Source: a candidate division WOR-3 bacterium | GTDB taxonomy: Bacteria > Hydrothermota > Hydrothermia > JBDRYB01 | Length of the DNA stretch: 64,000 nt | Assembly: GCA_039803205.1 (NCBI GenBank) | Contig: JBDRYB010000004.1 | Coordinates: forward strand, 1 to 64,000 | Direction: 5' to 3' | Shown: positions 3,698 through 62,974 of the stretch, piece by piece | How positions within the stretch are numbered: the stretch's first letter is position 1 | Layout of the letters: every line of letters starts with the position of its first letter | The notes under the pieces: generated by a model | Told to the model about the DNA's origin: nothing | Database searches by the model: none | Seen by the model: the letters and a program-made list of their open reading frames with translations, nothing else | Position numbers and translations under genes: made by a program

Positions 3698-4621
3698 CTA
3701 GCGAATGACAAGAACCTTTTTCAAGAGGACCGAATTACCTACCTCTGCCCTCAAGAAAAACGCGCCGGATGGCATCTTGGGAATCGGTATGGTGTGAGTT
3801 CCAGGGCCGCATAAACCCTCAAAGGGATGCGCCATGAGGGCACCTGAGGGGGAGTAGACCGATAGCGAGACCCGTGCTGGGGCTGGCAAATAAACCATGG
3901 CCTCAAAGCTCCCGCTGACGACCGGAGGAGCCGAGAGCAGGGGTCGCTCTGGCACCCCCCCTTCGGACACAGTCCCCCCTGGAAAGAGGATGAATTCGCC
4001 ATAACCAGCTGGATCATACCAGGGGGAAAGGTTCTGCGGCCAGTAGCCTATCAGTCCCCATTCGTCATCAGCGTAGAACAGGTGAACACCGATCGTGTCC
4101 TCCCAGCCAGACACGGCGTTGGTCCCGATAAACTGGGGCCCGGAATCAGCATGTGGGCTGAGGAGATAGATGGCCCACTCGCAAACGACATGGCCTAAAC
4201 CCTCTGAAAACGAATAGATCACCTGGTTTGCGGGATACCAACCCCCCCATGTGAAATCCTCAAGCCACCAAGAACAAAACCAACCATTGTCCGAGCCGAG
4301 CGCGTTGATGCCCTCAGTCGTATCAGACTTCGGCCATTTGCCTGAGTTGTCATCATCAAAAGCGGCTGAAGGCTGGGAGTGGCCCGAGAGGACAGTGTCC
4401 TTAAGGCAATCAAACGCCATGTATAGGTAAAAACGATCGTGGACGACATAAACGAGGCAATCTCCTGGCTCCTCGGGGTTTCCATCAACCCCAAGGGTAT
4501 CGGATATATCAACGACAGCCGCGGAATCCCATTCTCCCTGGGCGAGAACGCCATCTATGGTTGGGGGATGGGTTGTTGGTGGAACCAAAACCTGAAACTG
4601 CGCGAGAGCAAAAGCTATCAT
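3698..4621 (-). CDS. Secreted CBM9/DOMON-like protein with T9SS-type CTD
   Basis: PTIDGVLAQGEW, HDRFYLYMAF motifs; CTD VYSPSG...GAFFLR...KKVLVIR; start re-assigned to ATG 4621. Confidence 0.75.
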   Translation of the reverse strand: MIAFALAQFQVLVPPTTHPPTIDGVLAQGEWDSAAVVDISDTLGVDGNPEEPGDCLVYVVHDRFYLYMAFDCLKDTVLSGHSQPSAAFDDDNSGKWPKSDTTEGINALGSDNGWFCSWWLEDFTWGGWYPANQVIYSFSEGLGHVVCEWAIYLLSPHADSGPQFIGTNAVSGWEDTIGVHLFYADDEWGLIGYWPQNLSPWYDPAGYGEFILFPGGTVSEGGVPERPLLSAPPVVSGSFEAMVYLPAPARVSLSVYSPSGALMAHPFEGLCGPGTHTIPIPKMPSGAFFLRAEVGNSVLLKKVLVIR

Positions 4622-4742
4622 GACACAATTATAACCCTTTTCCTCCGCGAATCGCAAGCGCAATGGCCCAATAGGGATCCCTCTGTAACATTTCTCCCCA
4701 TTCCCTCGTCTTATTGTTTGTGATAAACCGGAGGAAAAACAG

Positions 4743-5138
4743 ATGGATATAGGAGACCTGATCGGACTCTTTTCTGTGATGGGCGTGTTCGGCATCCCCG
4801 TGTCCTTCTTCATCGCGGTGGTCCTCATAGTATCCATAAGCCTTGTCTATGCCTACATGAAGAGGAATATGATGCACAAGCAGATAAAGTCCGCCGTGGA
4901 ACGGGGCATGACAGCAGAGGAAATAAGGGTGCTGGTCAACGCACTAGGGGCCAACGGCAGGAGAAGGAGCGACCTCCTGGGCGGCATAACCATCTTAGCT
5001 TGGGGCGCTGGGCTTGGAGGGTTCTTCCTCGTCAACCAGCTTTGGGGAATAGCCATCCTTCTCGGCCTGCCTTTGGTGATAATAGGCGCGGCAAAGATAG
5101 TCTATTGGGCGATATCCGAGAGAAAAAAGGAGGCCTGA
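4743..5138 (+). CDS. Small membrane protein (DUF6249-like)
   Basis: GGAGG SD; TM, MHKQIKSAVERG, two TM helices. Confidence 0.6.
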   Translation: MDIGDLIGLFSVMGVFGIPVSFFIAVVLIVSISLVYAYMKRNMMHKQIKSAVERGMTAEEIRVLVNALGANGRRRSDLLGGITILAWGAGLGGFFLVNQLWGIAILLGLPLVIIGAAKIVYWAISERKKEA

Positions 5139-5140
5139 GC

Positions 5141-5815
5141 ATGAGACGGTCCGCGTTCATATGGCTTCTTCTCGCATCCTGTTGCCTGAACCTCAAAAAG
5201 GAAAAGAAGGAGGAACACGAGTTGGATTTCCCGCCCGGGCCCGTGCTCACGGTATCGGCCTCAGCCGCAGGAGTAACCATGAGGCCATCAGAGGACTCCC
5301 TCGCTCACATGAGCGTGAAGGGCGGCCTAAAGGAGGCCGAGGGCAAATATGAGATATCCGGCGCGGGAGCGGAGATGTTCGTGCCTTCGGGAACCGCTGT
5401 CGTGCTTGATGCTGTCCTGGCCGGAATTGAGGGCGTGGCCCCTGACAGCGCGATAGTGGACGCCACCCTTTCCGGCGTTGATCTTGAGGGATGGAAGGCG
5501 GGCAAGCTGAACCTCTTCATGTCCGGAGGCTCGGTTGTCCTGGCTCCTGATGCAAGAAGCTTCTCGGCGTTCGTGAAGTGGTCTGGCCTTGAACTCTATG
5601 TTCCGGAGGGCGTTTTCATAAAGCTTGAGGCTGACACATCCGGGGCCGGATTTGAGATAGAGGAAGGCATAATCTCTGAGCAAGGGATCCCCGTCAGCAT
5701 AGAAGCGCGAGGCGCTGGGGTTGAGATAAAGAGGTGGAAACCAGGCACAAAGAGAAAGGTTAATATAGGCGTTAAGGTTAAGAGGGGCGAGGACTCCTCT
5801 GGGAAGGCCGAATAG
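5141..5815 (+). CDS. Lipoprotein, DUF4097/adhesin-like beta-repeat
   Basis: MRRSAFIWLLLASC lipobox; GGAGG SD upstream. Confidence 0.55.
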   Translation: MRRSAFIWLLLASCCLNLKKEKKEEHELDFPPGPVLTVSASAAGVTMRPSEDSLAHMSVKGGLKEAEGKYEISGAGAEMFVPSGTAVVLDAVLAGIEGVAPDSAIVDATLSGVDLEGWKAGKLNLFMSGGSVVLAPDARSFSAFVKWSGLELYVPEGVFIKLEADTSGAGFEIEEGIISEQGIPVSIEARGAGVEIKRWKPGTKRKVNIGVKVKRGEDSSGKAE

Positions 5816-5873
5816 AATAGCACAACCTCCTATAAGTTGCCCGGCGATACCCGCCGGGCTTATGCTTTTGGCC

Positions 5874-6365: not shown

Positions 6366-6405
6366 GCTCCTGGTTGCTCGTTAAAAACCAAAGGCAAAAG
6401 AGAAC

Positions 6406-6879: not shown

Positions 6880-6881
6880 CT

Positions 6882-12960: not shown

Positions 12961-13818
12961 ATGAAAAGGCTCCTTATCACAGCAATAGCAGTGGTTGTGC
13001 CCCTGGCCGGGCAAACCAAGACCGTAGGCGGCGGCACGAGCAAAACCCCAATTACCCCCCAGCCTGACACCCAGCGCGCCTACATCCAACCTGTTGAGAA
13101 CGGCCTGATAAACTGGACAGACGGATACATAAGGGCGAGAGGCTACGCTGTGGTCTCTGAGAAGGAGGCCAACAAGCAAAAGGCCAGGCTCGGCGCTGAG
13201 CGCGCCGCGACCGTCATAGCCCAGAGGAATCTCTTGGAGATAGCCAAAGGCGTCTACATCAACTCAGAGACCGTAGTTGAGGACATGATGCTCTCGTCTG
13301 ATGTTATCGTGTCCAGGGTTGAGGGCGTTGTAAAGGGCGCTAGGATGGTTGGCCAGCCTCACTGGCTCCCGGACGGCGTTGTAATGGTTGAGATGGAGAT
13401 GCCCTTGTATGGCCAAAACAGCCTGCTCTCGGCCGTTGTTCCGAACACGCCGACCACAGCGAAACCGGACTCCCAGGCCCTCAAAGCTCTGGGAAATGTG
13501 CCCTGCATAGTCATAGACGCGAAGGGCCAGGTTCAGCCCGGACTCATGCCCCGGTTCTTTGACGAGAACGGCAACCTACTTCTTGATCTATCCCAGATCA
13601 TAGACCCAAATAACCCTCAGGGCATCAGGTATGTGAACAGCGTAGGGGATGTCCTTCAGTGCGGAGAGCAGTCCTGGGTTATTGAGGCCATAGACGCTGT
13701 TGGCAAAGGCAAAACGGATATGATCGTGGGCGAGAAATCAAAGGACAAGCTCAATTGGCTCAAGAAGGCCGGCAAGTTCCTCTGGGAGGCGGGTAAGACA
13801 TTCCTGCTCCTGTTCTAA
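12961..13818 (+). CDS. Exported LPP20-like domain protein
   Basis: GGAGG SD, signal peptide, INWTDGYIRARG...AERAA...RNLLE...VEGVVKGA. Confidence 0.65.
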   Translation: MKRLLITAIAVVVPLAGQTKTVGGGTSKTPITPQPDTQRAYIQPVENGLINWTDGYIRARGYAVVSEKEANKQKARLGAERAATVIAQRNLLEIAKGVYINSETVVEDMMLSSDVIVSRVEGVVKGARMVGQPHWLPDGVVMVEMEMPLYGQNSLLSAVVPNTPTTAKPDSQALKALGNVPCIVIDAKGQVQPGLMPRFFDENGNLLLDLSQIIDPNNPQGIRYVNSVGDVLQCGEQSWVIEAIDAVGKGKTDMIVGEKSKDKLNWLKKAGKFLWEAGKTFLLLF

Positions 13819-13829: not shown

Positions 13830-14906
13830 ATGACCGGAATTCTACTGATTTTGACCCTTCAGGCCAGCGATGCCAGGGACACATCCTATGTTGAGGTCAC
13901 AGCGGAAGGGGTCGCGGCCCTGGGAGCATCCGCTGACATAGCGAGGGACAACGCAATAAAAGACGCGCTCAGGAAGGCCGTTGAGCAGGGCGTCGGAGCA
14001 TACATAGATTCAAAGACCGCTGTTGACAACTACGAGCTCCTCTACGACAAGATATACTCTCACGCACAGGGCTATGTCGCGTCATACGAGGTCGTGAAGG
14101 AGAAGGCGGATAAGGATGCTGGGTTATACCGTGTTTGGATAAAGGCAAAGGTCAAAACGGGTATCATCCAGAACGACCTCGTTGCAATGGGCATCTTGGT
14201 CTCGGAGATGGGGAGGCCTCGGCTCGCGGTTGTGGTTGACAATGAGGACCTGGCATACACCCTTGAGGATTACTTCCAGGAACAGGGCTTTCCCTTGGTT
14301 GACCTTCCTACAGTGAAGAAGGTCCTGAAGGCGGATGAGCTGGATCTCCTAATAGACGGTGACAAGCGCACGGCTCAGAAGGTCGCGACCCTAACCGGAG
14401 CCGAGATACTGATAACCGGAAGGGCAGAGGTCTCATCCGAGATGAAGAAACTCCCTTACACGGACGAGAAGAAGACCATATACACGGCGAAACTGCGGGT
14501 GAAGGCGGTTGAGGCCCTCACTGGCGAGGTCATTGCCGTCTCATCCCTGAAACGCTCTCTGCCGTTTTCCGAGGAAGAGGTGATAAAGCTGGTTGGGGAT
14601 TCCTCCGCTAAGGAGCTCTCGTCTGAGATACTGAAGAAGTGGACCCTGCGAAGGAATGTCATACACATCATCATCAAGGGAGCCACCGCGGCAAAGATAG
14701 GCAAGATAAAGACCGGCATAAGGGAGAACATTCGCGGGGTATCCGAGGTCCTGGATAGGGGAATGGTTGAGGGCTACGCCATAATTGAGGTCGTTGCTGA
14801 GACGAATCCACAAGAGGTCCTTGACGCTATAAGGGAGAAGGAAAAGATCCTCGGCATACAGGTTGTCGCATACGAGGGTCAGCGCATAGAGGCAAAGGCC
14901 AAGTAG
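13830..14906 (+). CDS. FlgT N-terminal-domain protein
   Basis: AEGVA...ARDNAIKDALRKAVEQGVGAYIDS motif. Confidence 0.75.
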   Translation: MTGILLILTLQASDARDTSYVEVTAEGVAALGASADIARDNAIKDALRKAVEQGVGAYIDSKTAVDNYELLYDKIYSHAQGYVASYEVVKEKADKDAGLYRVWIKAKVKTGIIQNDLVAMGILVSEMGRPRLAVVVDNEDLAYTLEDYFQEQGFPLVDLPTVKKVLKADELDLLIDGDKRTAQKVATLTGAEILITGRAEVSSEMKKLPYTDEKKTIYTAKLRVKAVEALTGEVIAVSSLKRSLPFSEEEVIKLVGDSSAKELSSEILKKWTLRRNVIHIIIKGATAAKIGKIKTGIRENIRGVSEVLDRGMVEGYAIIEVVAETNPQEVLDAIREKEKILGIQVVAYEGQRIEAKAK

Positions 14907-14981: not shown

Positions 14982-15845
14982 ATGAAGAGGTTTCTAATTT
15001 TCGTAGGCCTCCTCGCTCTTTCCTGCAAGGAATCCGAGGTAACATACCCTTATTTCCAACGCATCTTTTCTTCCCCGGATGTTAACCCGGTCAACATACG
15101 ATATTACGACGGATACATCTATTTTCTTGATTCGGGCACGGGCGAGATATGGCGAGTGAAAGCAGAAGAGGGAGGAGCAAAAAGGGTTGGGCCTTCTGGG
15201 TATCAGTTTGATGTCTCCGGCGCGGGCATAGCCGTTGTTTCATTCCAGGGCGAGAACAGAGTTGATGTATATGACCTCTCAGGGAAACCAATCCATTCCG
15301 CTGTCCTGCACAGCCCTTATCCCATTAGGGTCAGATACGGCCCTGAGGATGAGCTTTACGCGGTTGTTCTGACAGAGGGGGATGCGGGGCCTCTTCTCAG
15401 GCTTAATCCGGACTCAGGCACAGCCGACACGGCCTTCCCGAGGGTTGGAGAGGAGTTCGTCCTTCGGGCCGACAGGGCGTATTATTTCTCTCCGGATGAG
15501 GGCAAGGTCGTGGCCTGCGTGCTTTGGGACACAACCACAACCTCCTTCTGGACAGGAAAGCCGGAAATGCCGGATGTCTTTCTGCACCATGTTCACCTTG
15601 ACCTTGCCCCGAACGGGAGGAGCCTCCTGGTGAGCCCGCTTCTAATCCTTGATACCCAGACCGGAATACAGACCCCCATTCACACTGATCCCTACGAGCA
15701 CGGCACAGAGCTTGAGGGCGGGGTCTCCTGGGATCAGGAGGGAAGCGGGTTCTTCTTCAACGCAAGGGAGCTGGACACGACCCGCGCTCAACAAAGCGAA
15801 TACACTCATTACTGGACGATCTGGTATTACGGGAACCCTGAGTGA
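14982..15845 (+). CDS. Lipoprotein, probable beta-propeller
   Basis: GGAGGT SD; MKRFLIFVGLLALSC lipobox; beta-rich. Confidence 0.65.
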   Translation: MKRFLIFVGLLALSCKESEVTYPYFQRIFSSPDVNPVNIRYYDGYIYFLDSGTGEIWRVKAEEGGAKRVGPSGYQFDVSGAGIAVVSFQGENRVDVYDLSGKPIHSAVLHSPYPIRVRYGPEDELYAVVLTEGDAGPLLRLNPDSGTADTAFPRVGEEFVLRADRAYYFSPDEGKVVACVLWDTTTTSFWTGKPEMPDVFLHHVHLDLAPNGRSLLVSPLLILDTQTGIQTPIHTDPYEHGTELEGGVSWDQEGSGFFFNARELDTTRAQQSEYTHYWTIWYYGNPE

Positions 15846-18430: not shown

Positions 18431-18434
18431 AAGA

Positions 18435-19681: not shown

Positions 19682-20410
19682 ATGATAAGCTTGCTCCTTG
19701 CCGCAACGCTTAAATGGGGACCCTACATGGTTTCCTGGAAGAAATACGAGTTCGGCGATATGCCGGATGAGACGCCGACCTTAACCATATCTAAGGGCGG
19801 AAAGGTTCTTCGCTCATTTGAGGTCTGGAATGCTGATGCCAAAACCCTTGATGTTGATGGCGACGGCACGGCAGAGCTCCTCGTGACCGATTATTCAGGT
19901 GGCGCGCACTGCTGTTTTACCTATTACCTATACACCAGGAAGCCAGACCTGAAACTTTTGGGGGTCTTTGACATGGAAAACGGGTCCTTGGAGTTCAGGG
20001 ACCTGGACGGCGACGGCAATCTTGAGGCAGTGGGCGCTTACGATGGATTTGCTTATTACGATTACCCCTACGCGGTGACCCCGTGGATTCCCATTGTCTT
20101 CAGCCTCAAGTCCGGCAGGTATGTGGAGAACACCGAGGCCTTCCGCGATCTCATACGGGAAAGACTGGACGAATACTACCTGGCCAGCCCTCCCGAAGGC
20201 GACGAGGAATCAAGAAAATCGTGGGTAGTTGGGGTCTACGCGCACATGTGCCTCCTGGGCGAAGAAACCTCTGCCTGGGAGACCGTAAGGAGAACCTGCC
20301 CGGATATGCTTGACTGGCTATCGGAAAACAAGTCCGACATAAAGGCGACACTCGCGGCCATGAAGGACAGGGTCAGATACACCGAGGAGGCCTCCTGGGA
20401 AGAGGAGTAG
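19682..20410 (+). CDS. Exported FG-GAP/VCBS-like protein
   Basis: DVDGDG and DLDGDG Ca-binding loops, SGGAHCC motif. Confidence 0.7.
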   Translation: MISLLLAATLKWGPYMVSWKKYEFGDMPDETPTLTISKGGKVLRSFEVWNADAKTLDVDGDGTAELLVTDYSGGAHCCFTYYLYTRKPDLKLLGVFDMENGSLEFRDLDGDGNLEAVGAYDGFAYYDYPYAVTPWIPIVFSLKSGRYVENTEAFRDLIRERLDEYYLASPPEGDEESRKSWVVGVYAHMCLLGEETSAWETVRRTCPDMLDWLSENKSDIKATLAAMKDRVRYTEEASWEEE

Positions 20411-36904: not shown

Positions 36905-36936
36905 TTGACACACACACACACACAACAGAGCATAAT
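36905..36936 (+). promoter_or_regulatory. Promoter TTGACA-20-CATAAT with (CA)8 tract in spacer
   Basis: Perfect -35 at 36905-36910, -10 at 36931-36936, 5' hairpin 36945-36961, AAGGAGG SD. Confidence 0.75.
36909..36924 (+). repeat. (CA)8 simple sequence repeat
   Basis: Directly visible; no comparable tract noticed elsewhere in the window. Confidence 0.95.
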
Positions 36937-36970: not shown

Positions 36971-37489
36971 ATGATGAAGGGCTTCATAAAAACACTGGTG
37001 GCCGCGAGCATGACGCTCGCTATGGGATGCTCAAGGGACTGGATGGATTGGCCCTTGAGCCCGACTGAGGACGGAAAGGTGGTCATAGAAGGCGGAGGCG
37101 GAGAGGAGCCGGATTGGCAAGAGGCTTTCCCGGCAACAGTATATGGGACGATCCACTGGTGGCGGACGGATATAATGGGTAGCAATGGCTACATATATGT
37201 GTATGATGCGAACAGAAACTGCATATGCTCTCGTTACTGGGGATTTGTTATCCATGACCCCCAGCCCTTTGATGTATGCGGATGTGACCTCAGAACAGAT
37301 CGTCCGCTTCCCTGGTATGTGTGCGGAGAGGCATATGACGGCAACCTAGACATGTATTGGCACGACGAGGACACCATAACAGATCTCTCCGGTCGGTATA
37401 ACTGTCCAGGATTCAGGAAGAAGGCCCCTTCCACCGGAATAGATCTTTACCTTGGAGACCCTGGGCCGTGTCCGGAGTGTGAACAGTGA
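36971..37489 (+). CDS. Cys-rich lipoprotein of unknown function
   Basis: MMKGFIKTLVAASMTLAMGC lipobox; CIC, CGC, CPEC. Confidence 0.75.
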   Translation: MMKGFIKTLVAASMTLAMGCSRDWMDWPLSPTEDGKVVIEGGGGEEPDWQEAFPATVYGTIHWWRTDIMGSNGYIYVYDANRNCICSRYWGFVIHDPQPFDVCGCDLRTDRPLPWYVCGEAYDGNLDMYWHDEDTITDLSGRYNCPGFRKKAPSTGIDLYLGDPGPCPECEQ

Positions 37490-37493: not shown

Positions 37494-37535
37494 AAACCCC
37501 CTGGCGCAGGTTGAATCCCACGAGCCAGGGGGTTT
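37494..37535 (+). terminator. 12-bp inverted repeat, terminator-like, overlapping next promoter
   Basis: AAACCCCCTGGC...GCCAGGGGGTTT; loop holds TTGAAT, followed 18 nt later by TATTAT. Confidence 0.5.
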
Positions 37536-37547
37536 ATTATGTATGTC

Positions 37548-39114: not shown

Positions 39115-39966
39115 CTACTGCCATCGGTATTCAATTCGTGGGGAAAGGAGGGTCTTCAGCTCCCCGAGGACATCCTCGTCCTCATCACCGTAAAGGAGAA
39201 AACGGATGAGGCTGGGCTTCTTTGGCTTCTTCATGAGCTTGGCCTCCTTTAGTTTCCCCATAGCTTTCGCGCACTCAACAGCGTCGTGATAGCTCCCTGT
39301 TCTGTCCACGAGACCCATCTGCGCGGCCTGCCTCCCCGTGAGTATCCTGCCATCAGCGACCCTTAGGACATCCTCCCTGGAAAGCCTCCTGCCCGATACA
39401 ACGACATCAACGAACTGATCGTAGATGTCCTGGACAGCCGTGTCCAAAAGAGCCATCTCGGCCTCCGTCCTCTTACGGAACGGAGATGTTATGTCCTTGT
39501 GCTCATCCGACTTCACTACCTCAACCTCGGCTCCCATCTTCTTCAGGGTTCCCTCTATGACAGGGAGGGTCATTATCACCCCTATTGAACCCGTTATGGT
39601 TCCGGGTGAGGCTATTATGCTGTCAGCCGCGCAGGATATGTAGTATCCGCCTGAGGCCGCGACCGCGCCCATGTAGACAACAACGGGCTTTTTGTGTTCT
39701 TGGCGCGCCCTGAGGAGCGCGCGGTATATCTCGTCAGCCGCGACTACCTCTCCCCCTGGGCTGTCTATCTTCACGAGGATCACCTTCACCCTGCTGTCCT
39801 CGGAGAGCTTCTCTATCCACTGAACTGTCTTGTCAGGATCAACAAGGGCGCCCTCTATCTCAACCAAACCAATATAACCCCCTCGGTCAAAAACGAAACC
39901 AACGGTTAGAGCAGTTGCCGCACCCACTACAAGAACAATTCCTACCCCACAAAGAAACCTCTTCAT
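39115..39966 (-). CDS. sppA: Signal peptide peptidase SppA (S49)
   Basis: IDSPGG, AASGGYY, GSIGV, DGRILTG. Confidence 0.94.
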   Translation of the reverse strand: MKRFLCGVGIVLVVGAATALTVGFVFDRGGYIGLVEIEGALVDPDKTVQWIEKLSEDSRVKVILVKIDSPGGEVVAADEIYRALLRARQEHKKPVVVYMGAVAASGGYYISCAADSIIASPGTITGSIGVIMTLPVIEGTLKKMGAEVEVVKSDEHKDITSPFRKRTEAEMALLDTAVQDIYDQFVDVVVSGRRLSREDVLRVADGRILTGRQAAQMGLVDRTGSYHDAVECAKAMGKLKEAKLMKKPKKPSLIRFLLYGDEDEDVLGELKTLLSPRIEYRWQ

Positions 39967-44398: not shown

Positions 44399-45823
44399 AT
44401 GCTGGCTCTCACTGCGCTTATCCTCTCATCGTATCCGAAAGCGCTGAGCCTCTTGGACAGGGGAGAGTTCTCTGCGGCCCTATCGGTTATAGACAGCGCT
44501 CTCAGGGATGATCCATCCGATACCCTTCTTCGCGAGCTCAGGGTGAGGGCTCTTCTCGGTCTCGGTAAGACTGACCAAGCGTTCAGGCTCGCGCTCTCGC
44601 TCGGCAAGGAGATCAACACCCAGGATGAATTCAGCAGGCTGTTCTACATTTTCAAATACGCTGGCCACGAGGAGGAAGGGATAAAACTCCTTGTGGAGGG
44701 GAGGAAATCCCTCAGAGATAACAAGGCATTTGCGAGGGAGATATACTCCTACTACATATCAAAGGGCGAGACAGAGAAGGCTTTGCCGGAGCTCTTCTCC
44801 TGCTCGGCTGACCCGAGGCTCCGCTATTGGCTTTCGGATGAGATCAGGAACCTTTCAACAAGAAACCCCAATGCGCTAGAAAGGCTCTCAGACTGGATGA
44901 TTGAAAATCCTCATCCAGAATGGCTTGAGGCGCTCTGTTACGAGCTGGCCCTGAAACAAGGGTTGTGGGAAACAGCGGGACGCTGGGCAGGCGGTGACGA
45001 AAACCTCATGGATGTGGCTGAGAGGGCAATATCCGAAGGAAACATAGCTGAAGCAGAGAGGCTTTTGGCTCAGGTCAAAACAAGGGGAGACAGGTATCAC
45101 GCGCTTAGGGGAGATTGCCTCTCGGCCCGGGGAAGGTATTCCGAGGCTGAGTCCGCTTATTCCGCTATAAACGATAGAACCACGAGGGAAACGAGGCTCT
45201 CCGGGCTTTACCTCGGCGCATACAATCAACCTGAGAGGGTTATTGGGCTTTCTGGAAACGCACCAGAGAAGGCAGAAGCCCTCATGAGAGCGGGGAAGTT
45301 TTCGGAAGCACTCGGTCTCGCATCCGAGATGGAGCCGCCGGACAGGCTCTATTATTCTGGAAAAGCAGGGCTGTTTCTCGGTCAAGACTGGGCCACCGAC
45401 AGCCTGAAGAAGTTCGTAGCGCTTTACTCCCGCGACGAGAGAGCGACATCTGCGCTCGCGTGGCTGGAGATATGCGCCAGCTCAGAGGGTTGGCCCTCTT
45501 ATTTCCAGGCCCTTCACCAGCTTGAGAAGGGGAGCTATGAAGCTGTGCTATCCTCGCAACCAGAGGATACAGCCCTGGCCGGTTATTTCGGGGTTCTCAG
45601 GGCAAGGGCTCTTGAGGGTTCTGGCAGAATAGAGGACGCGCTTGCCCTTTACGCCAAATTAGCTGATGCAGGAGGGCTTCCCGGAGCCGAGGCCGCTTTC
45701 AGGGCCTGGAGGCTTTGCCTCAACCTCAAGCGCGAGAGCGAAGCCAGGGGTTTCATGATGATCCTTGTCAGGAAATATCCCAGGACGCCTTACGGCATAA
45801 TAGCAAGGGAGTATGTGCCTTGA
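44399..45823 (+). CDS. Exported TPR-repeat protein
   Basis: Helical A/G/Y TPR pattern, ends LVRKYPRTPY. Confidence 0.7.
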   Translation: MLALTALILSSYPKALSLLDRGEFSAALSVIDSALRDDPSDTLLRELRVRALLGLGKTDQAFRLALSLGKEINTQDEFSRLFYIFKYAGHEEEGIKLLVEGRKSLRDNKAFAREIYSYYISKGETEKALPELFSCSADPRLRYWLSDEIRNLSTRNPNALERLSDWMIENPHPEWLEALCYELALKQGLWETAGRWAGGDENLMDVAERAISEGNIAEAERLLAQVKTRGDRYHALRGDCLSARGRYSEAESAYSAINDRTTRETRLSGLYLGAYNQPERVIGLSGNAPEKAEALMRAGKFSEALGLASEMEPPDRLYYSGKAGLFLGQDWATDSLKKFVALYSRDERATSALAWLEICASSEGWPSYFQALHQLEKGSYEAVLSSQPEDTALAGYFGVLRARALEGSGRIEDALALYAKLADAGGLPGAEAAFRAWRLCLNLKRESEARGFMMILVRKYPRTPYGIIAREYVP

Positions 45824-49518: not shown

Positions 49519-50337
49519 ATGATTCCTGTGATGCTAAATTGGGTTTTGGTTTCGGAGGATACCCTGGCCACGGCTTTTGTCTCAGAAAACCTCGCTTTCA
49601 AGGCAGAGGTTCATCCGGGAGACACAGCCTACACCATAGAGGTTTCTTCGGCACAAGGGAGCTGGAGCATAGGTATCCAGTGGGGGCCGGAAACTGACAT
49701 CCAGCTTGCGGATGACGGTTCTCTGGTGCTCACCCAGGGCAAAAGGATGAGCGTGTATAGGGATGCCAAGCTGTCCTGGAGCACCGATATCGGCAACGCC
49801 CTTCCCCTTGTATTGGGAGAATATGTTCTTTTGCTCTCAAATCAAGGGATCGTGCTCTACTTTACATCGGGCCTTAAGCCGGTAGGGGAATATGAGCTCG
49901 TTCCACCGCTTGACATATCCGAATCAGCAGTTGCCGGAATATGGAACGGGAAGCTCAGGTTATACCGTGATAAAAAGAAGGAATGGGCGCTCCCATACGA
50001 GTATCCGAGGTTCACCGAGATATGCAAAAAGGGGGTAGCGGTCGCGTTTCCGAGAAACCTCGTGTTCTACGATTTCTCAGGGAACAAGCTCTGGGACAAG
50101 GAACTTCCCGTCTCAACATCCGCCCTGCACTGCGGCGGCGGCCTCATATGGATTGCTGGAACCAACCCTGATTCCAGGAAGGCGGAACTCTGGGCATTTT
50201 CTGATGATGGCTCTGAGCGTGCTCACTTCACATACGATAATCCAAAAGAGCCAGCCTTCGTATCCAGGATATTCTGCGACGGCGAAACCCTGAGGGTCTT
50301 CGTCTCAAGGGTCCTCTACACATACAAGACACAGTGA
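49519..50337 (+). CDS. Hypothetical exported beta-propeller-like protein
   Basis: YDFSGNKLW-type strands; promoter TTGCGC-18-TAAGAT upstream. Confidence 0.55.
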   Translation: MIPVMLNWVLVSEDTLATAFVSENLAFKAEVHPGDTAYTIEVSSAQGSWSIGIQWGPETDIQLADDGSLVLTQGKRMSVYRDAKLSWSTDIGNALPLVLGEYVLLLSNQGIVLYFTSGLKPVGEYELVPPLDISESAVAGIWNGKLRLYRDKKKEWALPYEYPRFTEICKKGVAVAFPRNLVFYDFSGNKLWDKELPVSTSALHCGGGLIWIAGTNPDSRKAELWAFSDDGSERAHFTYDNPKEPAFVSRIFCDGETLRVFVSRVLYTYKTQ

Positions 50338-50345
50338 GGCAAGGC

Positions 50346-51590
50346 ATGATCCCGGCCCTCGTTATCTCAATACCCTGGCCCCTCGTTCCACAGGACCAGG
50401 CCCATCCAGTAGGAAACTCGTGGGGGGAGTATCAGGAATACTCAGGGGACCCATCCGGAGCCTACCTGCACCCTGGGGTTGATGTGATGGGAGTCACATC
50501 GGGAAAGGAGGTTCGTGCGGTTGCTTCGGGATGGGTGAAGGCTTGGATGAGCCTTGGCGGCGACATCTACTGGCGGGTTGCCACATCTGACAACAACACA
50601 TCCGATTGGTCGGACGGATGGCTTTACGCTCACATAGACCCAAACAGGTATCATGTGAATGTTGGGGATCAAGTTTCAACGGGAACAACAATAGGCTACC
50701 TGGTCGTGTGGCCCGTTCCAGGCTTTGACCACTGCCACTTCGCCCGGATACGCCACCACGGGACAAACTGGAACGACGCTGGCTGGCGCTTTATAAGAAA
50801 CCCACTGGTTGATCTTGCCCCTAACACGGATACCGTCAAACCAATCTTTGAATCAACGGGGATGAGCGGCTCTTGCAATTTCGCATTTAGGCGAAACAAC
50901 TCAAGCATCTATCTTTCCCCGGATTCCCTTTACGGCAAGGTTGATGTAATAGCCAAGATCCATGACAAATTCGGGATCTCCTGGGGCTATCCAACATACG
51001 AGAGAATAGGTGTCTACAGGATAAGCTACGAGGTGAAGGGAGCGGTTCCTTTGACCTTATCCTTCCTCTTTAGGGACACCCTTAACTACAACAGTTATGG
51101 AATCGTCTACACCATCTACGAGTATGACAACCAGCTTCAGACCCAGGGAAACTATGAAGCAAGGGAATACTACTACATCGTCACCAACACAGATGGGGAT
51201 TCAACCGTTGAGACATCGGATAGCCTGGAGGCTTGGGATACAAGCGCTCTGCCCGATGGGGAATACTGGTTCGTGGTCCAGGCAGAAGACGAGCACGGCA
51301 ATGTGAAAAGGGATTCCTGCCTCGTTAAGACCAGAAACGGGAATCCAGGCGCTGATGAAGGAGGAACCCCATCAGCCTTCCAGATGGGGCCGAGGGTCTT
51401 CTTGAACGAGAGCTGGGTTAAGGTGCCCCTGGACTGGCCAGAACCCTTGCTCTACGATGTGTCCGGTAAGAAGGTGGAGGGGATTTACGGGAATGAGGCC
51501 GGCTCATACCGAATAGCGCCTGAGGCATCTGGGGTCTATTTCCTCGTGCTAAAAGGAAAGAGGCTCAAGATGCTCAAGCTCTCACAATAA
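50346..51590 (+). CDS. M23-like metallopeptidase with T9SS-type CTD
   Basis: HPGVD (HxxxD), YAHID, HCH (HxH); LYDVSGK...GVYFL CTD. Confidence 0.8.
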   Translation: MIPALVISIPWPLVPQDQAHPVGNSWGEYQEYSGDPSGAYLHPGVDVMGVTSGKEVRAVASGWVKAWMSLGGDIYWRVATSDNNTSDWSDGWLYAHIDPNRYHVNVGDQVSTGTTIGYLVVWPVPGFDHCHFARIRHHGTNWNDAGWRFIRNPLVDLAPNTDTVKPIFESTGMSGSCNFAFRRNNSSIYLSPDSLYGKVDVIAKIHDKFGISWGYPTYERIGVYRISYEVKGAVPLTLSFLFRDTLNYNSYGIVYTIYEYDNQLQTQGNYEAREYYYIVTNTDGDSTVETSDSLEAWDTSALPDGEYWFVVQAEDEHGNVKRDSCLVKTRNGNPGADEGGTPSAFQMGPRVFLNESWVKVPLDWPEPLLYDVSGKKVEGIYGNEAGSYRIAPEASGVYFLVLKGKRLKMLKLSQ

Positions 51591-51661: not shown

Positions 51662-53545
51662 ATGTTGCTTTATCTCCTCATCGTAGCTGGAGCAGGTTCT
51701 CTCACCGAGGCGGGCTCGGCAATAAGGGGCTTCTTCTATGACCCGAGCCTTTTCTTGGTGAACGAAAATGCTACCAAAACGAGAACCGTGAAGGTTCCTA
51801 GCATGGCAACGCCTATAAGGTGGAGCGGATGCGACGGATATGAGGCTCAACCGCTTCAAACCATCTACTGCTATAACACAGCCGCTCCTTCGGATTGGGC
51901 TTTCTGGTGCGCGGAGACCTTCAAGAGCTCAGACGGCATAACCGTGGAGCTATACTACAACGACGATGGCTCAAACGACGGGTGGTGCGATGACAGCTAC
52001 CGCGCCGCTTCAAACTATACGGGCACGAACGCTTTGAACTATGTCCTGGCTAATCACAACATAGGATACCTAGGAATATTCACAGGAGGATCATCTGGCC
52101 CCCCAGAGGGCGCTTATTACATCTACGGATCAGGTTCCTACACCGAGTCATACGAGGCTGTTTTCGTTGATTGCTACTCAACCAGCCCATACATGAACAG
52201 CAGCAACATGCTCGGGGACGAGATTCTCCTCCTGTGCGATGCTGGATACCCTGGGGTTCCCTTTGATGTTGGTTCCCTAACAGCGGGCTCAGCTTATGTC
52301 TTCTACGCTTACTCTTATCCCGTCGGTGGCAGCTGCGACCCCTACATGGCGATCCATCGCGGGCAGAACGACGCGACATACAACTGGCAAGCAAGGGGCG
52401 AATGGGAAGGCTGGTATAACAACACCGGTGCTGGCTCAGGGGAATCCGTGGTGTTCACGCCGGCGGCCTCCGGCCGATACGCTATACAGATAGGCCAGTG
52501 GAACCAAGGGGGCGCTCCGGAGGATACATTCGGCGTCGGATTCTACCCATACTTCAGCAACATGACCAACGAGACCCCGATTGACATACCGGACGGCGGC
52601 TTGGGCAGGTTTGTCCAACCGGACACAGTGAAGCGCTGGGCTGTTGTTGGGACAAAACCAGGAGGCACGGACGATTACGATGTCTTCATCAAGGCCACGC
52701 ACGACATAAACGCGATTTGGGATCCAGCCCTTTTGGGTTATTCAAACCTTGCCGGAAACGATCTGACGGATTTCGTTCTCATAAACTATCATAACCGCTT
52801 CGGCAGTGCCATAACAGGCGTTGACTGGTTCACTCGCTTCAACAAGATGACATGCAACCGCGTTGCAAGCGGGGAATGGTGCAGGAGCCACGGGATCATC
52901 TCGGATACCTCAAGCGCTTCATACGGGCCATACAGCTACACCGCGAGGGAAGTCGCTTGGAGCTGGGACATAATCCCGGTCCAATGCCCCCCATCGGATA
53001 CCCATGGCCTCATCATATATGTGGACATAACCTCAGGATCAATTGACCTCGGAATAGCGATCGCGGACCCGGATAACGGAGATTTTCAGGGGCGCAGCGG
53101 AGGGAGCCTCACGATAGCCAATTCTTCCGGCGCCGGAGGGGATGAAATGCTCATCTGGCAACCAGATTTTATGGCAGACACCTATGGCCTCGCTGTTTTC
53201 TCAGAGAACATGAACTCCGGGACATTCCAGATAACCTACAGGTGTCCGAGGCCGCTTGATACATACGAGGCGCCAGGAGACCATCCCCAAGAGCTCAGCT
53301 TGAGGCTTAAAACCAGCCCAATTCAGGATATTCTCTCTTTCACCCTCGGCCTCCCAGGAGACACCAGGGTTGAGCTCGCCATATATGACGCGACCGGAAG
53401 GGTTGTCGTGTCAAAGGACCTGGGTCATTTCCAGCCCGGCTGGCACGAGATAAACGAGGACATCTCAACCCTGACGAAAGGAGTGTTCTTTGTCAGGGTC
53501 AGGACACAGATGGGTTGGCTCCAGAGAAAGGTGATCCTCAAATAA
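51662..53545 (+). CDS. Secreted multi-domain protein with T9SS-type CTD
   Basis: GGAGGT SD; beta-sandwich-like repeats; IYDATGR...GVFFVR...RK CTD. Confidence 0.75.
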   Translation: MLLYLLIVAGAGSLTEAGSAIRGFFYDPSLFLVNENATKTRTVKVPSMATPIRWSGCDGYEAQPLQTIYCYNTAAPSDWAFWCAETFKSSDGITVELYYNDDGSNDGWCDDSYRAASNYTGTNALNYVLANHNIGYLGIFTGGSSGPPEGAYYIYGSGSYTESYEAVFVDCYSTSPYMNSSNMLGDEILLLCDAGYPGVPFDVGSLTAGSAYVFYAYSYPVGGSCDPYMAIHRGQNDATYNWQARGEWEGWYNNTGAGSGESVVFTPAASGRYAIQIGQWNQGGAPEDTFGVGFYPYFSNMTNETPIDIPDGGLGRFVQPDTVKRWAVVGTKPGGTDDYDVFIKATHDINAIWDPALLGYSNLAGNDLTDFVLINYHNRFGSAITGVDWFTRFNKMTCNRVASGEWCRSHGIISDTSSASYGPYSYTAREVAWSWDIIPVQCPPSDTHGLIIYVDITSGSIDLGIAIADPDNGDFQGRSGGSLTIANSSGAGGDEMLIWQPDFMADTYGLAVFSENMNSGTFQITYRCPRPLDTYEAPGDHPQELSLRLKTSPIQDILSFTLGLPGDTRVELAIYDATGRVVVSKDLGHFQPGWHEINEDISTLTKGVFFVRVRTQMGWLQRKVILK

Positions 53546-54705: not shown

Positions 54706-55478
54706 CAGAAGGAGAAGGAGAGCTTGAAATAAGGGCAGAACCGCTCGTGCACGAACCAAGATGGACCATAGGTATACGCGATATCCAGAAGGGTATCCGG
54801 AGGGAAAGACAACTTCTCAGAACCCACCCCAACTCCTCTGCGGGTATCCCACACGAGAACCCCCCAGCCTTCCGGTGGTATCTCAGGGTGGAACCTGGAC
54901 CAAAGAGGAACATAGATGAATCCGATCTCAAAATAGGACCCCTCGCCCACACGGTAAATTCCGAATGTATACGGATTATAGTTGCCGGGGATTATGCACC
55001 AAAGGAGCAGGGGGAGATCCTCTTGGCCACGGTATATATCAGAAATGCCCGTATATTCGTTCAAAAAAGGGTTATCAAGAATCATCCACTGGTATCTGAA
55101 GCCCCATTCGTTCATATTTCCTCTGAAGTGGGCATCGGAGATATACGCGCCCAGGCTTGCCCACGCGATGTCCATCAGGGAAACAGGGCATGTTCGCAGT
55201 ATGTAATGTTCACCGAGCTCACAGCCCGCAAAGGCAAAAATAGTAATCGGCAATGCCGCGTCGCCCAGCCAAGGGTGCATAAAGGATTCAAGCATATATC
55301 CCCCGGCAAAGTGCCCCTGATAGAAAGAACTGAAATACTGGCCGAACTCGCATTTCTCGTCCTGGAAGTGAAGTTTGGTAAACCAGAGGTCCACGCTTAT
55401 CGTCGTGAACCTGTCGCCCTCATAGTCGTAATAAATGTCCCTCTGCCAGAAGAGCCCGGAAGCCAGAGCCAAGATCAA
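54705..55478 (-). CDS. Hypothetical exported/outer-membrane protein
   Basis: Overlaps both neighbours; terminal Phe (FKLSFSF). Confidence 0.55.
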   Translation of the reverse strand: MILALASGLFWQRDIYYDYEGDRFTTISVDLWFTKLHFQDEKCEFGQYFSSFYQGHFAGGYMLESFMHPWLGDAALPITIFAFAGCELGEHYILRTCPVSLMDIAWASLGAYISDAHFRGNMNEWGFRYQWMILDNPFLNEYTGISDIYRGQEDLPLLLWCIIPGNYNPYTFGIYRVGEGSYFEIGFIYVPLWSRFHPEIPPEGWGVLVWDTRRGVGVGSEKLSFPPDTLLDIAYTYGPSWFVHERFCPYFKLSFSF

Positions 55479-56667: not shown

Positions 56668-58020
56668 ATGATTGGTTTTATGATGGGAATTTTGCTCGCA
56701 GGGGGTTGGTGGAGGCAGTGGGATGGCGGGGGAGATGACTGGGGATACTCGGTTTGTGTGGACGGCGCAAACAACATCATAGTCGGCGGAGACAGCTACA
56801 ACCCTGGAACCGGAACGATTGACGGACACATCTGGAAATACGACTCCTCGGGCAATCTCCTCTGGGATACCCCCATACCAAACCCAGGCAACCAGCTCTT
56901 CAGGGGCATTGACACCGACACCGACAACAATATCTATGTGTGCATGACAGATTATCTGGCCAATAAGATGCTCGTCGTGAAATACACATCAACAGGAAGC
57001 TTCAGGTGGAGCTTCTCCTTTGGCCCAAACAGCAATGCTCTTTATGAGGTGCACGACATATGGGTTGACAGGGACAGGGTCTTCGCGGTTGGCTTTGAGA
57101 ATGACACCGTTGAGGACACGATCACCATGGTCCTCCACTACATTGATACAGGAGGAACCCTCATCAGAACAGTATACTGGAACGGACGCGGCATCTTCGG
57201 CGCTGATGCTTTTGGCCACTCGGTCTGCGTCAACTCCGCGGGCAATCCGGTTGCGGGCGGATGCAGGGTTGATTATCCCCTACCCAATTACAAGGCAATG
57301 CTTGTTGAGTTCTCCAGAACAACCGGCCAGGAGGTGAGGCGAGTTGAGTTCAATCCCACGAACTACTGGGAGTTCGTTGAGGACATAGATGTCCACCCCA
57401 GCGGAGACCTGGTCTTCGTCGTGAGGGTTGATTCAGACCCGAAAAGCTCTTATGTCTGCCGATACACCAGCACTTTCTCTCCCGTGTGGCAGAGAAGCAT
57501 ATCCTCAGGAGCAATAAGATATAGCCTCTACGGCGTTGATGTCGGGCCCGGGGACACGGTTCTGGTCTCAGGCCTACTCCAGGAGAACGGCCAGGACGCG
57601 GAGTTCTGGATCAGAAAATACAATTGGAGTGGAGATTCGGTCTGGGGAACAACAATAGACCACAGCCTAGGATACGACGATTGGTCAGAGGATTGCGCTT
57701 GGGATAAAACAGGCTATGTGATAGCCGCTGGCGGAACCGTGGCCGGGGGAACAAACAAGGATATGCTCGTCTACAAATTGCCCCTTCCGCCGGTTGGATC
57801 AGAGGAGTCTGGGAAGCCGTGCCAGGGCATCCAGGCCGTTCCAAATCCTTTCAGAACAGAAATAACCATATCGGGAGCAGAAGGCCCATATCATGTATAT
57901 GACGCGAGCGGAAGGCTCCTCTTCGCAACAACAGATAAGAGATTTGGGGGGTGGCTTGAGCCGGGGGTCTATTTCATAGGGACCAAGAAGGGGATGATCA
58001 GGGTAATAAAGATCAGGTGA
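56668..58020 (+). CDS. SBBP-like beta-propeller protein with T9SS-type CTD
   Basis: GGAGG SD; KYDSSGNLLW repeats; PNPF...YDASGR...PGVYF CTD. Confidence 0.82.
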   Translation: MIGFMMGILLAGGWWRQWDGGGDDWGYSVCVDGANNIIVGGDSYNPGTGTIDGHIWKYDSSGNLLWDTPIPNPGNQLFRGIDTDTDNNIYVCMTDYLANKMLVVKYTSTGSFRWSFSFGPNSNALYEVHDIWVDRDRVFAVGFENDTVEDTITMVLHYIDTGGTLIRTVYWNGRGIFGADAFGHSVCVNSAGNPVAGGCRVDYPLPNYKAMLVEFSRTTGQEVRRVEFNPTNYWEFVEDIDVHPSGDLVFVVRVDSDPKSSYVCRYTSTFSPVWQRSISSGAIRYSLYGVDVGPGDTVLVSGLLQENGQDAEFWIRKYNWSGDSVWGTTIDHSLGYDDWSEDCAWDKTGYVIAAGGTVAGGTNKDMLVYKLPLPPVGSEESGKPCQGIQAVPNPFRTEITISGAEGPYHVYDASGRLLFATTDKRFGGWLEPGVYFIGTKKGMIRVIKIR

Positions 58021-60098: not shown

Positions 60099-60803
60099 TT
60101 ACTCTATGGGCTTGAACATGTCCTTCGTTACCCCGCAGACAGGACAAGTCCAGGTATCCGGCAGGCTCTCAAATGAGGTTCCGGGCGGTATCTTGCCATC
60201 CGGATCCCCCTTCTCGGGGTCATAGATGTAGCCGCAGACAGAGCAACGGTATTTTCTCAAAAGTGCCTTTGCTTCTGAGGGTTCTTTTGACATCGGCTCT
60301 TCTCCCTGGTATGTTGGGGCCTTCGGCGGAGAATAGCCCTTCTTTACCTGGTGATAATAGGCATAAGTCATGGGTTCAGCCTCGGCAAGGACCTCCGCAT
60401 CCAGAACCTCGCCCACGAATATCGTGTGGGTTCCCACATCCACCGACTCCGTTACCCTGCACTCAAACCAAGCGACCGCGTTCTCCGTGACTACGGGCGC
60501 GCCGGTCTTGCCGATGAAGTGTTTCGTGTCCGAGAGCTTATCGATCTCTCGGCCTGACTTGAACCCGAACTTGCCGATGAAGGGCATGGGTGTATCCTGG
60601 GCCAGGACAGAGACCGAAAATATCCCTGATTCCTTCACGAACTCGCAGGTCAGGTTCCCGTTGTTGAGCGCGACCGCGATCTTGGGCGGCTCCGCGGTGA
60701 CCTGAACAGCGACATTCGCTATCTGGCCGTTGAGCCTGTCTCCTTTCTTTGAAGCCACGACGAAGACGCCGTAGCTGATCTTGTGAAAAGCGGATCTGTT
60801 CAC
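60099..60803 (-). CDS. Flavin reductase-rubredoxin fusion (high-molecular-weight rubredoxin)
   Basis: FGFKSGR, GTHTIF, YAYYH; CSVCGY...WTCPVCG. Confidence 0.92.
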
Positions 60804-61312
60804 GCCCTTCCCTCCACATCAAATTCCATCATGCCGAACCAGAACCCAGTTTGTGTAACGAAGTCCAGCTGAGCCTGGATGAGCTCGCGGTGGCCTTCCT
60901 CAACCTCCGCCAGCTGTTTGAAGACCTCTTTAACCTTGGGGTCATCAGCCTTTTCTGACTGCTCACGGTAGAAATCCCTTGTCTCAATCTCCATCCTGAG
61001 CGCGGCTCGGAGAGCATCAGCATCGTGGGCATCTGACTTGCTTCCCTTGGTGCGCTCCATCTTTTTCAAGCGTGGCATGAATCGCTGGATCTCAGACTCC
61101 GGTATCTTGAGGCTTTCGGTCGGGGATCGGCTGGCCACAGCCTTCATGCTCTCAAAAAGCCTCATGTGCGCGAACTCCTCCCTCGCTAGCCAGATGAACA
61201 TGTCCTTGCCATCGGAGGATGATGTCCTCAGAGCGAAGTCCATGTATGCCCTCATGCCTTCTTTTTCTATCTCAATGGCATGTTCTAGAGCGCCGTGTAG
61301 ATCGTAAGCCAT
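60800..61312 (-). CDS. Ferritin/rubrerythrin-family diiron protein
   Basis: [15 protein letters not shown]...FY, EEGH. Confidence 0.88.
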
Positions 61313-61375
61313 GATAACCTTCCTTTCTAGTAGTTAAATTATAAGGCCCAACGGGTTCAGGATGCCACCTTCACG

Positions 61376-62974
61376 CTATCTTGCCACGAAAACAACCATC
61401 CTCCTGAGGCCCTTTCCTTCCAGAACAGCTATATACGAGCCGAGTTTAAGAAAGCCGAGTCCAAACTCACAGGGCTCCTCCCAAAGCCCCTCCTTCAATA
61501 CGGCTATTAGCCTGCCCGTTGCATCGTAGATCGAGAGCCTCGCGTATAGCCCCGGGCCGGGAAAGGCCTTTAGCGTTCTGCCAGCGAAGACGAGGCCCGG
61601 CTGTTCGCGCTCGCGCTCAGAAACAGAGATCTTTGGCAGTATATAGATGGTGGTCGTGTCATCGGAGGGGATGCTATCAACCAGAACCTCGGCGAACCCA
61701 TCGGGCGCCATGCGCAGGATATGCCCGGGTCCAAGGACATCATATTCATAACCGGGGTTCATCTTGGGCCAAACCCTCCCTCTGTAGAATGTCCTTGGGC
61801 TGTTGTTGTCTATGGTTATCGTGCAGGTCGTGCTGTCATAGTTATAGACATAGCTGAGCCTGAGATTCCAGAGCAAAAGCGAACCGAGGCCATCCGGAAG
61901 CCCGTTCCTGTCCTGATCCTCAAGGAAAGATGTGATCGTGTCCCTCGTTATCTCAACCCTCCTGTAGCCCAAGGTGTCCTTGCTGGGCTTACAGGTGCTC
62001 AGCGCCTGAAGAAAATAAGGGGTTGTTGGATAAACCGAAACATCTCCCTGAATCCATGTGCTATCCGAGAGAAAGAAACGGTTATGGTGGGTGTGGCCGT
62101 GGAGGACAAGACTGAGCCCTTGGTTCTTTGAGAGGTTTATGAACTCATCCCTTCCGTGGGTGTTTGATCTGTCCGAGCCATCGTAGTCAATCACAGGGCC
62201 GTGCATCATGGCGAGCTTCTGGGTGAAGGAGCTGTGTTCGCTGAGCACAGAATCAGCCCAGGCTATCTGGCCTGGGTCCAGACCCCAGCAACGGGCGTTT
62301 GGGGAATCTGGGTCAAGAGGTCCCGTGTTCATGCAAAGCATAAGAAGCCAATCCGAATAGGTGAAGAGGTAATTCAACTCGGGGTTCACGAGCGCGGGGT
62401 AATTGGTCATTGTGGTCCTAGGAGCGTGATCGTGGTTGCCAGGGGCCGTAAAAATGGGCACCATGAGCTCGGACGCGGCATCAAGGAACTGAGCATACCA
62501 GGTCGGGGATTCAGCTTCCTCGCCGGCCTCAACTAGGTCTCCGGTTATCACGATGAAATCAGGATATATGGTGTTGGCCTCAATTACTGCTTGGCGAAAC
62601 CTAAGGAGCTCCTGCGCCGTGTTGCCTATGTGGATGTCAGTGAGCTGAAGGAAAACAACCGTATCCCTCCATGCCGGATAGATCATGAGAGCGTTGGCCT
62701 GGGTATCTGAGCCCTCGGGGGTTGAGAGGATCATGTCGTAAATCCCTGGCTCTGCAATGTATGGGATACTGAAGGACGAGCGCCAAAGGGTATCCGCAGG
62801 GGTGGGGGTTGATGAGCCTAGGTCATACTCCGAGAACCTGCTCTGGATCCTGAGGGAGGCCGGGTTCGGCTGGCCAGAGGCATAGAGGACAACCAGGGAA
62901 TCACCAGGGATAGCCAGGCAAGCGTTCGCCAGCCTGGGATGATAAATCCAAACCGCTAACAGAAAAACGAGCAT
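61376..62974 (-). CDS. Secreted calcineurin-like metallophosphoesterase with T9SS-type CTD
   Basis: TDIH, TGD, GNHD, GHTH; IYDATGR CTD; ATG 62974. Confidence 0.85.
   Translation of the reverse strand: MLVFLLAVWIYHPRLANACLAIPGDSLVVLYASGQPNPASLRIQSRFSEYDLGSSTPTPADTLWRSSFSIPYIAEPGIYDMILSTPEGSDTQANALMIYPAWRDTVVFLQLTDIHIGNTAQELLRFRQAVIEANTIYPDFIVITGDLVEAGEEAESPTWYAQFLDAASELMVPIFTAPGNHDHAPRTTMTNYPALVNPELNYLFTYSDWLLMLCMNTGPLDPDSPNARCWGLDPGQIAWADSVLSEHSSFTQKLAMMHGPVIDYDGSDRSNTHGRDEFINLSKNQGLSLVLHGHTHHNRFFLSDSTWIQGDVSVYPTTPYFLQALSTCKPSKDTLGYRRVEITRDTITSFLEDQDRNGLPDGLGSLLLWNLRLSYVYNYDSTTCTITIDNNSPRTFYRGRVWPKMNPGYEYDVLGPGHILRMAPDGFAEVLVDSIPSDDTTTIYILPKISVSEREREQPGLVFAGRTLKAFPGPGLYARLSIYDATGRLIAVLKEGLWEEPCEFGLGFLKLGSYIAVLEGKGLRRMVVFVAR

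Follow-up and report, generated by a model that had tools for sequence, protein, structure and literature searches.

On our best reading, most exported proteins of a candidate division WOR-3 bacterium (GenBank assembly GCA_039803205.1), the essential outer-membrane machinery included, start with an uncharged apolar tag of ~7-14 residues that would serve as their export signal. Canonical signals for the Sec translocon and signal peptidase I (SPase I), by comparison, have an n-, h-, and c-region and measure about 18-30 aa. The trait came to light in a 64,000-nt window (contig JBDRYB010000004.1, positions 1-64,000), one contig of a 2.32-Mb genome that is 95.9% complete and whose SPase I, SecY, and BamA have relatives named candidate division WOR-3, Ca. 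Hydrothermales, or Hydrothermota. From these names we take its class to be Hydrothermia; a scan with ThrS was uninformative on taxonomy. An earlier note had listed 11 such N termini in the window and proposed a minimal signal class on exported proteins other than lipoproteins. Three lines of evidence (genome-wide counts, bounds set by stop codons upstream of BamA, and the register of a glutamine) agree on that class, and we confirmed that the short uncharged N termini are real and genome-wide.

We collected proteins with a C-terminal domain (CTD) like that of type IX secretion system (T9SS) cargo by an iterated profile, which returned 241 proteins in 2.3 Mb; large paralogous beta-propeller families are among them. 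Start codons were called from nucleotides alone, using the Shine-Dalgarno (SD) sequence, the -10 box, the codon, and its position. Of the tail proteins, 233 retain their 5' end and measure 150 aa or more; a confident ATG could be called in 181 of these, and the other 52 were dropped. These 181 comprise 144 with a short uncharged N terminus, 31 with a classical basic one, and 6 without an apolar segment, which are probable miscalled starts. A hydrophobic N-terminal segment is thus present on 175/181, as it is on BamA, Skp, and SprA, and 144 of those 175 have no Lys or Arg in the first five residues or before the segment, in line with the earlier statement that a Lys/Arg n-region is almost always missing. 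The apolar segment ends at a median of residue 11 in the uncharged proteins versus residue 16 in the basic ones; mean hydropathy is high at positions 4-10 and ~0 from position 12 in the former, and high to ~16 in the latter. The length first given, ~7-12 residues, needs correction, the genome-wide range being ~7-14 (median 11). A fixed classifier applied to 1223 open reading frames (ORFs) of the host genome called 169 short and 84 classical signals, as against 2 short (both false positives) and 15 classical in 110 ORFs from 200 kb of E. coli K-12, so the excess of short signals lies beyond chance.

We considered whether true starts lie upstream or at rare codons and restore ordinary signals, an explanation that we regard as barely credible. 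It holds for single cases, such as 50346/50334 in the window, and an upstream start could add a Lys or Arg in 23/144 short proteins. The called ATG, however, follows a strong SD sequence in 129 of the 144 and a -10 box in the remaining 15, which are leaderless; in 100/144 it is the first ATG, GTG, or TTG past an in-frame stop, and in many genes that stop lies only 1-11 codons upstream. An alternative ATG, GTG, or TTG no more than 35 codons from where the apolar segment stops exists in 40/144 and is absent in 104/144. When four rarer codons are permitted, 83/144 have some upstream option, but on average polar residues occupy the in-frame positions -3 to -7, and a longer start would therefore not extend the h-region. 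Moreover, both real short-signal orthologues in a congener keep the start while the upstream frame differs. Leaderless initiation is itself real in this genome, since a TAHWWT hexamer ends 6 nt (72 cases) or 7 nt (37 cases) before the first ATG of 1352 long ORFs, compared with ~8 at spacings of 12-17 nt. Leaderless genes are common beside strongly SD-led ones, with window cases at 4621, 9872, 19682, 30934, 37548, and 62974.

Within the window, translation reproduced 11/11 of the N termini listed earlier, with short, hydrophobic segments and no lipobox in any of them. The short signals, their controls, and associated elements are as follows.

4601-4621, minus strand: N terminus of a 307-aa T9SS-tail protein (ORF 3698-4621), where 7 uncharged signal residues precede Gln; leaderless; from translation and tail profile
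4628-4633, minus strand: TATAAT -10 box ending 6 nt 5' of the 4621 ATG
5141-5185, plus strand: classical basic lipoprotein signal (control)
12961-13011, plus strand: internal control absent from the earlier examples, a classical basic signal of SPase I type followed by Gln
13830-13859, plus strand: N terminus of a 358-aa FlgT_N-like protein, a further case, in which 10 uncharged signal residues precede Gln; SD 7, no start possible farther upstream
14982-15026, plus strand: classical basic lipoprotein signal (control)
19682-19705, plus strand: N terminus of a 242-aa FG-GAP-like protein that lacks a T9SS tail, with ~8 uncharged signal residues; leaderless, no in-frame ATG, GTG, or TTG upstream
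21789-21815, plus strand: ~9-residue uncharged signal on a 1482-aa PorU/gingipain-like T9SS-tail protein; SD 7, first possible start
30897-30926, plus strand: sigma70-type promoter match whose -10 ends 7 nt 5' of the 30934 ATG (consensus match only)
30934-30957, plus strand: N terminus of a T9SS-tailed PQQ-type propeller (493 aa), with ~8 uncharged signal residues
32412-32441, plus strand: intermediate form, in which the short (~10-residue) signal of a 618-aa T9SS-tail protein includes one Lys
36971-37030, plus strand: classical basic lipoprotein signal (control)
37511-37540, plus strand: promoter match (consensus match) whose -10 overlaps the alternative ATG 37539
37548-37574, plus strand: N terminus of a T9SS-tailed SBBP propeller (519 aa), where 9 uncharged signal residues precede Gln
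39115-39966, minus strand: SppA-type S49 peptidase of the signal peptide peptidase family (PF01343, E 8e-47)
44399-44428, plus strand: 10 uncharged signal residues, with an in-frame stop 2 codons before them and a TPR domain from residue 11-13
50334-50369, plus strand: short signal of an M23-like protein with T9SS tail, its start ambiguous between GTG 50334 (with Arg) and ATG 50346 (without)
51662-51691, plus strand: ~10 uncharged signal residues, with an SD sequence and an in-frame stop 2 codons before them
55458-55478, minus strand: 7 uncharged signal residues read from a TTG with SD 7, no start being possible farther upstream
56668-56700, plus strand: N terminus of a T9SS-tailed propeller (450 aa), with 11 uncharged signal residues; no start possible farther upstream
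62954-62974, minus strand: N terminus of a T9SS-tailed metallophosphoesterase (532 aa), with ~7 uncharged signal residues; leaderless

The -10-like hexamers described upstream of 4621, 19682, 30934, 37548, and 62974 do end 6-7 nt 5' of the ATG. For the 4621 gene an in-frame ATG exists upstream at 4837, but the extra residues are polar and lie 5' of the -10 box; at 37548 the overlap of the -10 with the alternative ATG favors 37548 as the start. Full -35/-10 matches were found at 30897-30926 and 37511-37540, in a whole scan that was near chance (15 matches versus 10.7 ± 3.0). The example at 50346 is ambiguous, because the in-frame GTG at 50334 is coupled to the upstream stop (GTGA) and would add a 4-residue n-region bearing Arg. 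A T9SS-like tail is present on 8/11 of the listed proteins and missing from those at 19682, 44399, and 55478; TIGR04183 itself matched four window proteins, two of them above the cut-off. The 1482-aa PorU/gingipain-like protein (21789-26237) scores under every family cut-off. A (CA)n run at ~36905-36930, 5' of the lipoprotein gene at 36971, lies between a TTGACA and a -10-like box and is a possible phase-variable promoter spacer. The S49 peptidase, which has a classical basic N terminus, might possibly dispose of cleaved signal peptides.

Short uncharged N termini are not confined to tail proteins. They also occur on BamA, on a second Omp85 protein whose POTRA begins at residue 13, on Skp, on SprA, and on TPR proteins (labels for Skp and some others come from motif recognition and orthologue searches). 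These proteins have unrelated folds, and the segment is therefore not part of one fold. BamA and SprA must be exported to function. Classical SPase I-type signals coexist with the short ones, both in the 31/181 tail proteins and at 12961 in the window, and intermediates exist, either short with one Lys or uncharged with 13-14 residues. Lipoproteins behave differently: as described earlier, those at 5141, 14982, and 36971 have classical charged signals, and genome-wide 43/45 lipobox proteins have long basic signals with the Cys at a median of position 18. Lgt and LspA probably need a membrane-spanning helix, which would be why lipoproteins retain such signals. A looser lipobox rule gave two possible short lipoproteins among 10 matches; in all, G000 and G048 have two or three possible ultrashort lipoproteins, with Cys at position 8-9, as exceptions to the pattern. 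The twin-arginine motif does not occur in the short-signal set, which has no Arg; a TatA-like ORF is encoded in the genome. The segments do not resemble signal anchors for the signal recognition particle (SRP) either, as there is no apolar stretch of ~20 residues, and Ffh, FtsY, and SRP (4.5S) RNA were not found in the host genome.

To locate the end of the signal we relied on glutamine. The pattern [SAG]Q with Q at positions 8-15 occurs in 52/144 short proteins, compared with a mean of 6.6 and a maximum of 16 in 1000 draws from mature regions, and S, A, or G directly precedes the first Gln in 55/75. This register implies signals of 7-14 residues, with a median of 11. In a propeller paralogue family of 27 members, Gln lies exactly three residues before the mature motif in 18, with a Met-Gln distance of 10-15; being fixed relative to that motif, the Gln keeps register with the mature fold, which is how a +1 residue would behave. 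The same small-residue-then-Gln motif closes 15/31 classical signals in the host genome. At -3 relative to the inferred site we found L, I, or F in 43/52 and Leu in 31/52. SPase I sites otherwise follow the Ala-x-Ala rule. In Bacteroidetes, Gln after the SPase I site is documented for ~71% of substrates on average, according to PMC5837995. The WOR-3 pattern is like this Q-rule in its Gln enrichment at the presumed +1, its exclusion of lipoproteins, and its T9SS-type cargo. It is unlike the rule in that the Bacteroidetes Gln follows a SignalP-predictable signal, whereas here the signal itself is minimal and Gln is seen in 52/144 (36%).

The genome encodes SecA, SecY, SecD/F, LspA, Def, Fmt, LepB, SprA, and PorV (SecD/F, LspA, and Def assigned by motif only). 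An adapted SPase I, raised as a possibility earlier, was not borne out. LepB aligned to E. coli SPase I keeps the Ser/Lys dyad, and the catalytic and pocket residues are identical in 21 short-signal and 10 classical WOR-3 genomes. Three to four columns differ between the same two sets; none is catalytic and the comparison is confounded by kinship, so we rejected them as an adaptation. SecA (L087:196-3228) has a canonical motor. Its PPXD holds an insertion of ~100 aa with which solved structures do not align, and this prevented a comparison of the signal-binding groove. Relative to solved SecA structures, a second, Cys-rich insertion lies near residues 635-680. SecY (L088:3124-4437) retains the pore-ring isoleucines and matches E. 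coli in transmembrane helix (TM) 7, at positions that we take, with no confirming text found, to be the E. coli pore ring and prl alleles. A Ser68Val change in the plug was rejected as a prl-like adaptation, since it is common to TA06, Zixibacteria, and Edwardsbacteria and hence not lineage-specific. SecY residue 399, at the start of TM10 and at the position of E. coli Ser405, is Arg; relatives sharing it also have an acidic residue at the end of TM5, and a salt bridge between the two is our guess. We also discarded a loss of YidC, which is an assembly gap in the host genome (the gene is present in 43/45 genomes, both congeners included), and a broken fmt, whose TGA is a true stop. For T9SS export, SprA scored above the cut-off and seven PorV-family matches were found.

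We then asked how far the trait extends. BamA orthologues were read in 41 genomes and labeled short or classical by eye. In the host's class, 18/18 have ~14 or fewer residues before the Gln or the mature register, three of them with one Lys. Short BamA N termini also occur in 9/23 genomes of other classes (G003, G004, G011, G017, G052, G066, G076, G145, and G161), and the other 14, including G019 and, from the SRP-less family f26, G060 and G070, are classical. In-frame stops cap the BamA signal at 10-15 residues in 10/41 orthologues whatever the start codon, and at most 10, 11, 12, and 13 residues precede the POTRA1 register in G063, G083, G161, and G108, compared with 19 from the ATG in G070. 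Among 120 BamA relatives, 24 of the 30 nearest are short and 26 of the 30 farthest basic; named relatives from Glassbacteria, Krumholzibacteriia, Latescibacterota, and Marinimicrobia are classical and one from TA06 is short. On a quick tree, which was midpoint-rooted and does not fix the number of origins, short forms are spread over several clades, with classical ones between them. Sampled loci (6-103 kb per genome, partly picked at strong TIGR04183 matches, with counts not corrected for kinship) gave 42 short and 79 classical signals in 17 genomes of the class; 33 and 46 in nine genomes with SRP and a short BamA; 22 and 79 in 11 genomes with SRP present or weak and a classical BamA; and 3 and 17 in three other SRP-less genomes. 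For the SRP-bearing families G066, G069, G076, G091, and G161, plus G145, these samples cover the BamA region or little more. The trait is therefore phylum-wide and patchy, with its highest share, among well-sampled genomes, in the host genome; the earlier restriction to a single lineage was too narrow.

This distribution bears on a further explanation, in which loss of SRP and a lineage-specific SecY change made a new targeting route of which short signals are the code. In its favor, FtsY-family GTPases were found in none of the 64 genomes of the class (completeness of 90% or more in 44), 14/14 controls being positive, Ffh is likewise seen in 0/64, and the host lacks a detectable SRP RNA. The Arg at the Ser405 position, too, marks 10/10 class genomes and 0/20 others in a comparison that used protein relatives without genome labels and one motif, so that non-matches could reflect flanking differences; and all 18 class BamA orthologues are short. 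Against it, all nine other-class genomes with a short BamA have strong SRP54-family matches (E 1.2e-65 or better; both Ffh and FtsY confirmed in G004 and G161), and none of the eight tested matches the SecY Arg pattern. Conversely, the SRP-less f26 genomes G060 and G070 keep a classical BamA, and G070, with 3 short and 15 classical signals, is near the E. coli false-positive level. Even within the class the short share runs from 2/16 (G144) to 169/253 in the host. Short signals with SRP and classical ones without it mean that SRP loss does not explain them; we rejected it as the cause, find no support for any causal tie to SRP, and consider the broader explanation improbable. Short signals thus appear uncoupled from both SRP loss and the SecY Arg. 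Family f26 seems to represent a second SRP loss (no real SRP match in eight genomes), possibly joined by f25 and f28, and f19, f23, and f27 have SRP matches of only about E 1e-40 to 1e-47, perhaps divergent SRP GTPases. YidC is kept.

A dedicated, unrecognized chaperone or a non-Sec translocase that reads the short peptides is less probable still. Two signal classes in one cell, only one of them used by lipoproteins, are what two routes would give; yet intermediates bridge the classes, orthologues change class on the BamA tree, and no candidate factor was seen, none having been sought.

We suggest that these proteins are probably exported post-translationally by SecA and SecYEG on a Met plus a short h-region, which ordinary SPase I would cut after a bulky-x-small motif. 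The short N termini, starts, Gln register, machinery, and SRP absence are observed; the Sec route, SPase I cleavage, and the reason for the lipoprotein exemption are inferred. The signal would consist of Met and about 6-13 apolar residues, lacking a basic n-region and having hardly any c-region of its own. Its apolar stretch would bind SecA and the SecY lateral gate, and SecA, independent of SRP, would drive the precursor through SecYEG. The neutral, perhaps still formylated N terminus may follow the chain into the lateral gate rather than remain cytoplasmic. Cleavage after (L/I/F)-x-(S/A/G), often leaving Gln exposed, would release the mature protein to the periplasm, to BAM, or to a T9SS-like SprA/PorV channel.

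Several observations weigh against this proposal. First, a peptide of 7-11 residues is too short to span the bilayer as a helix, which makes access of SPase I to the cut site a problem. Second, Leu at -3 deviates from the Ala-x-Ala rule, and no SPase I change tracks it. Third, the [SAG]Q mark is missing in 92/144 short proteins, the 52/233 tail proteins without a confident start were left out, and 6/181 have no apolar segment. Fourth, no plant-type glutaminyl cyclase (PF05096) was found in the host genome, and its three M28 proteins did not resolve as glutaminyl cyclases. Finally, a GldM profile found nothing in five genomes, a search made uninformative by 0/14 in controls as well and limited to GldM among the components of the GldL/M motor and GldK/N ring. 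The first two points, together with the S49 peptidase encoded in the window, would fit Sec export signals that SPase I does not remove and that are instead retained or trimmed in the periplasm by another protease, for example S49/SppA. We think this unlikely, because the same small-residue-Gln motif ends both classical signals and the BamA signals of related phyla, the Gln keeps a constant distance from the mature fold, and a normal LepB is present.

How, then, do the proposed SPase I-cleaved signals compare with known systems? Like canonical Sec/SPase I signals, they are N-terminal apolar segments on periplasmic, outer-membrane, and secreted proteins, with a small residue at the presumed -1 and with SecA, SecYEG, and LepB present. 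They are unlike them in having about half the length, no basic n-region, an h-region from residue 2-4, a bulky -3, and no separate c-region. They would work as a Sec/SPase I signal that misses two defining features, the basic n-region and the 18-30-aa length; PMC8669966 states that positive charge precedes the hydrophobic sequence in canonical signals. The same paper reports that E. coli prl translocons accept defective signals, and a translocon tolerant of weak signals would explain the trait. In contrast to prl translocons, the pore-ring Ile and TM7 are unchanged here, the plug Ser68Val is shared with other phyla, and Arg405 is a class marker not tied to short signals. Cargo of T9SS type A, described in PMC12618676 as having a Sec signal and a CTD, shares the TIGR04183-like tails, the SprA match over the cut-off, and the PorV family; it differs from that description in its minimal N-terminal signal, which BamA, Skp, and SprA carry as well, and in that GldM was undetected by an uninformative search. 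We found no description of such signals, or of SRP loss in WOR-3, in the literature searched, which excluded subscription journals and supplements.

Taken at its widest, our proposal is that a large part of the phylum runs essential envelope biogenesis (BamA, Skp, SprA, and hundreds of cargo proteins) on cleavable, neutral signals of 6-11 residues that cannot span the membrane and are read by Sec and SPase I with unchanged active sites, one class also inserting membrane proteins without SRP; this could equally well prove right or wrong. The SRP-less class of 64 genomes is a separate and independent lead. If the proposal is true, these cells by design do without the basic n-region and the transmembrane signal helix, and a signal could be cut without anchoring in the bilayer, giving a natural lower bound for the length of a Sec signal. 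The purpose of the n-region, and the need for a membrane-spanning signal before cleavage, would become directly testable on a ready set of orthologous BamA proteins and paralogous propellers, with 7- versus 19-residue signals, from lineages with and without SRP. The standard rules of protein export and of its prediction would not cover this lineage, and prediction tools that were trained on classical signals probably overlook much of the WOR-3 secretome.

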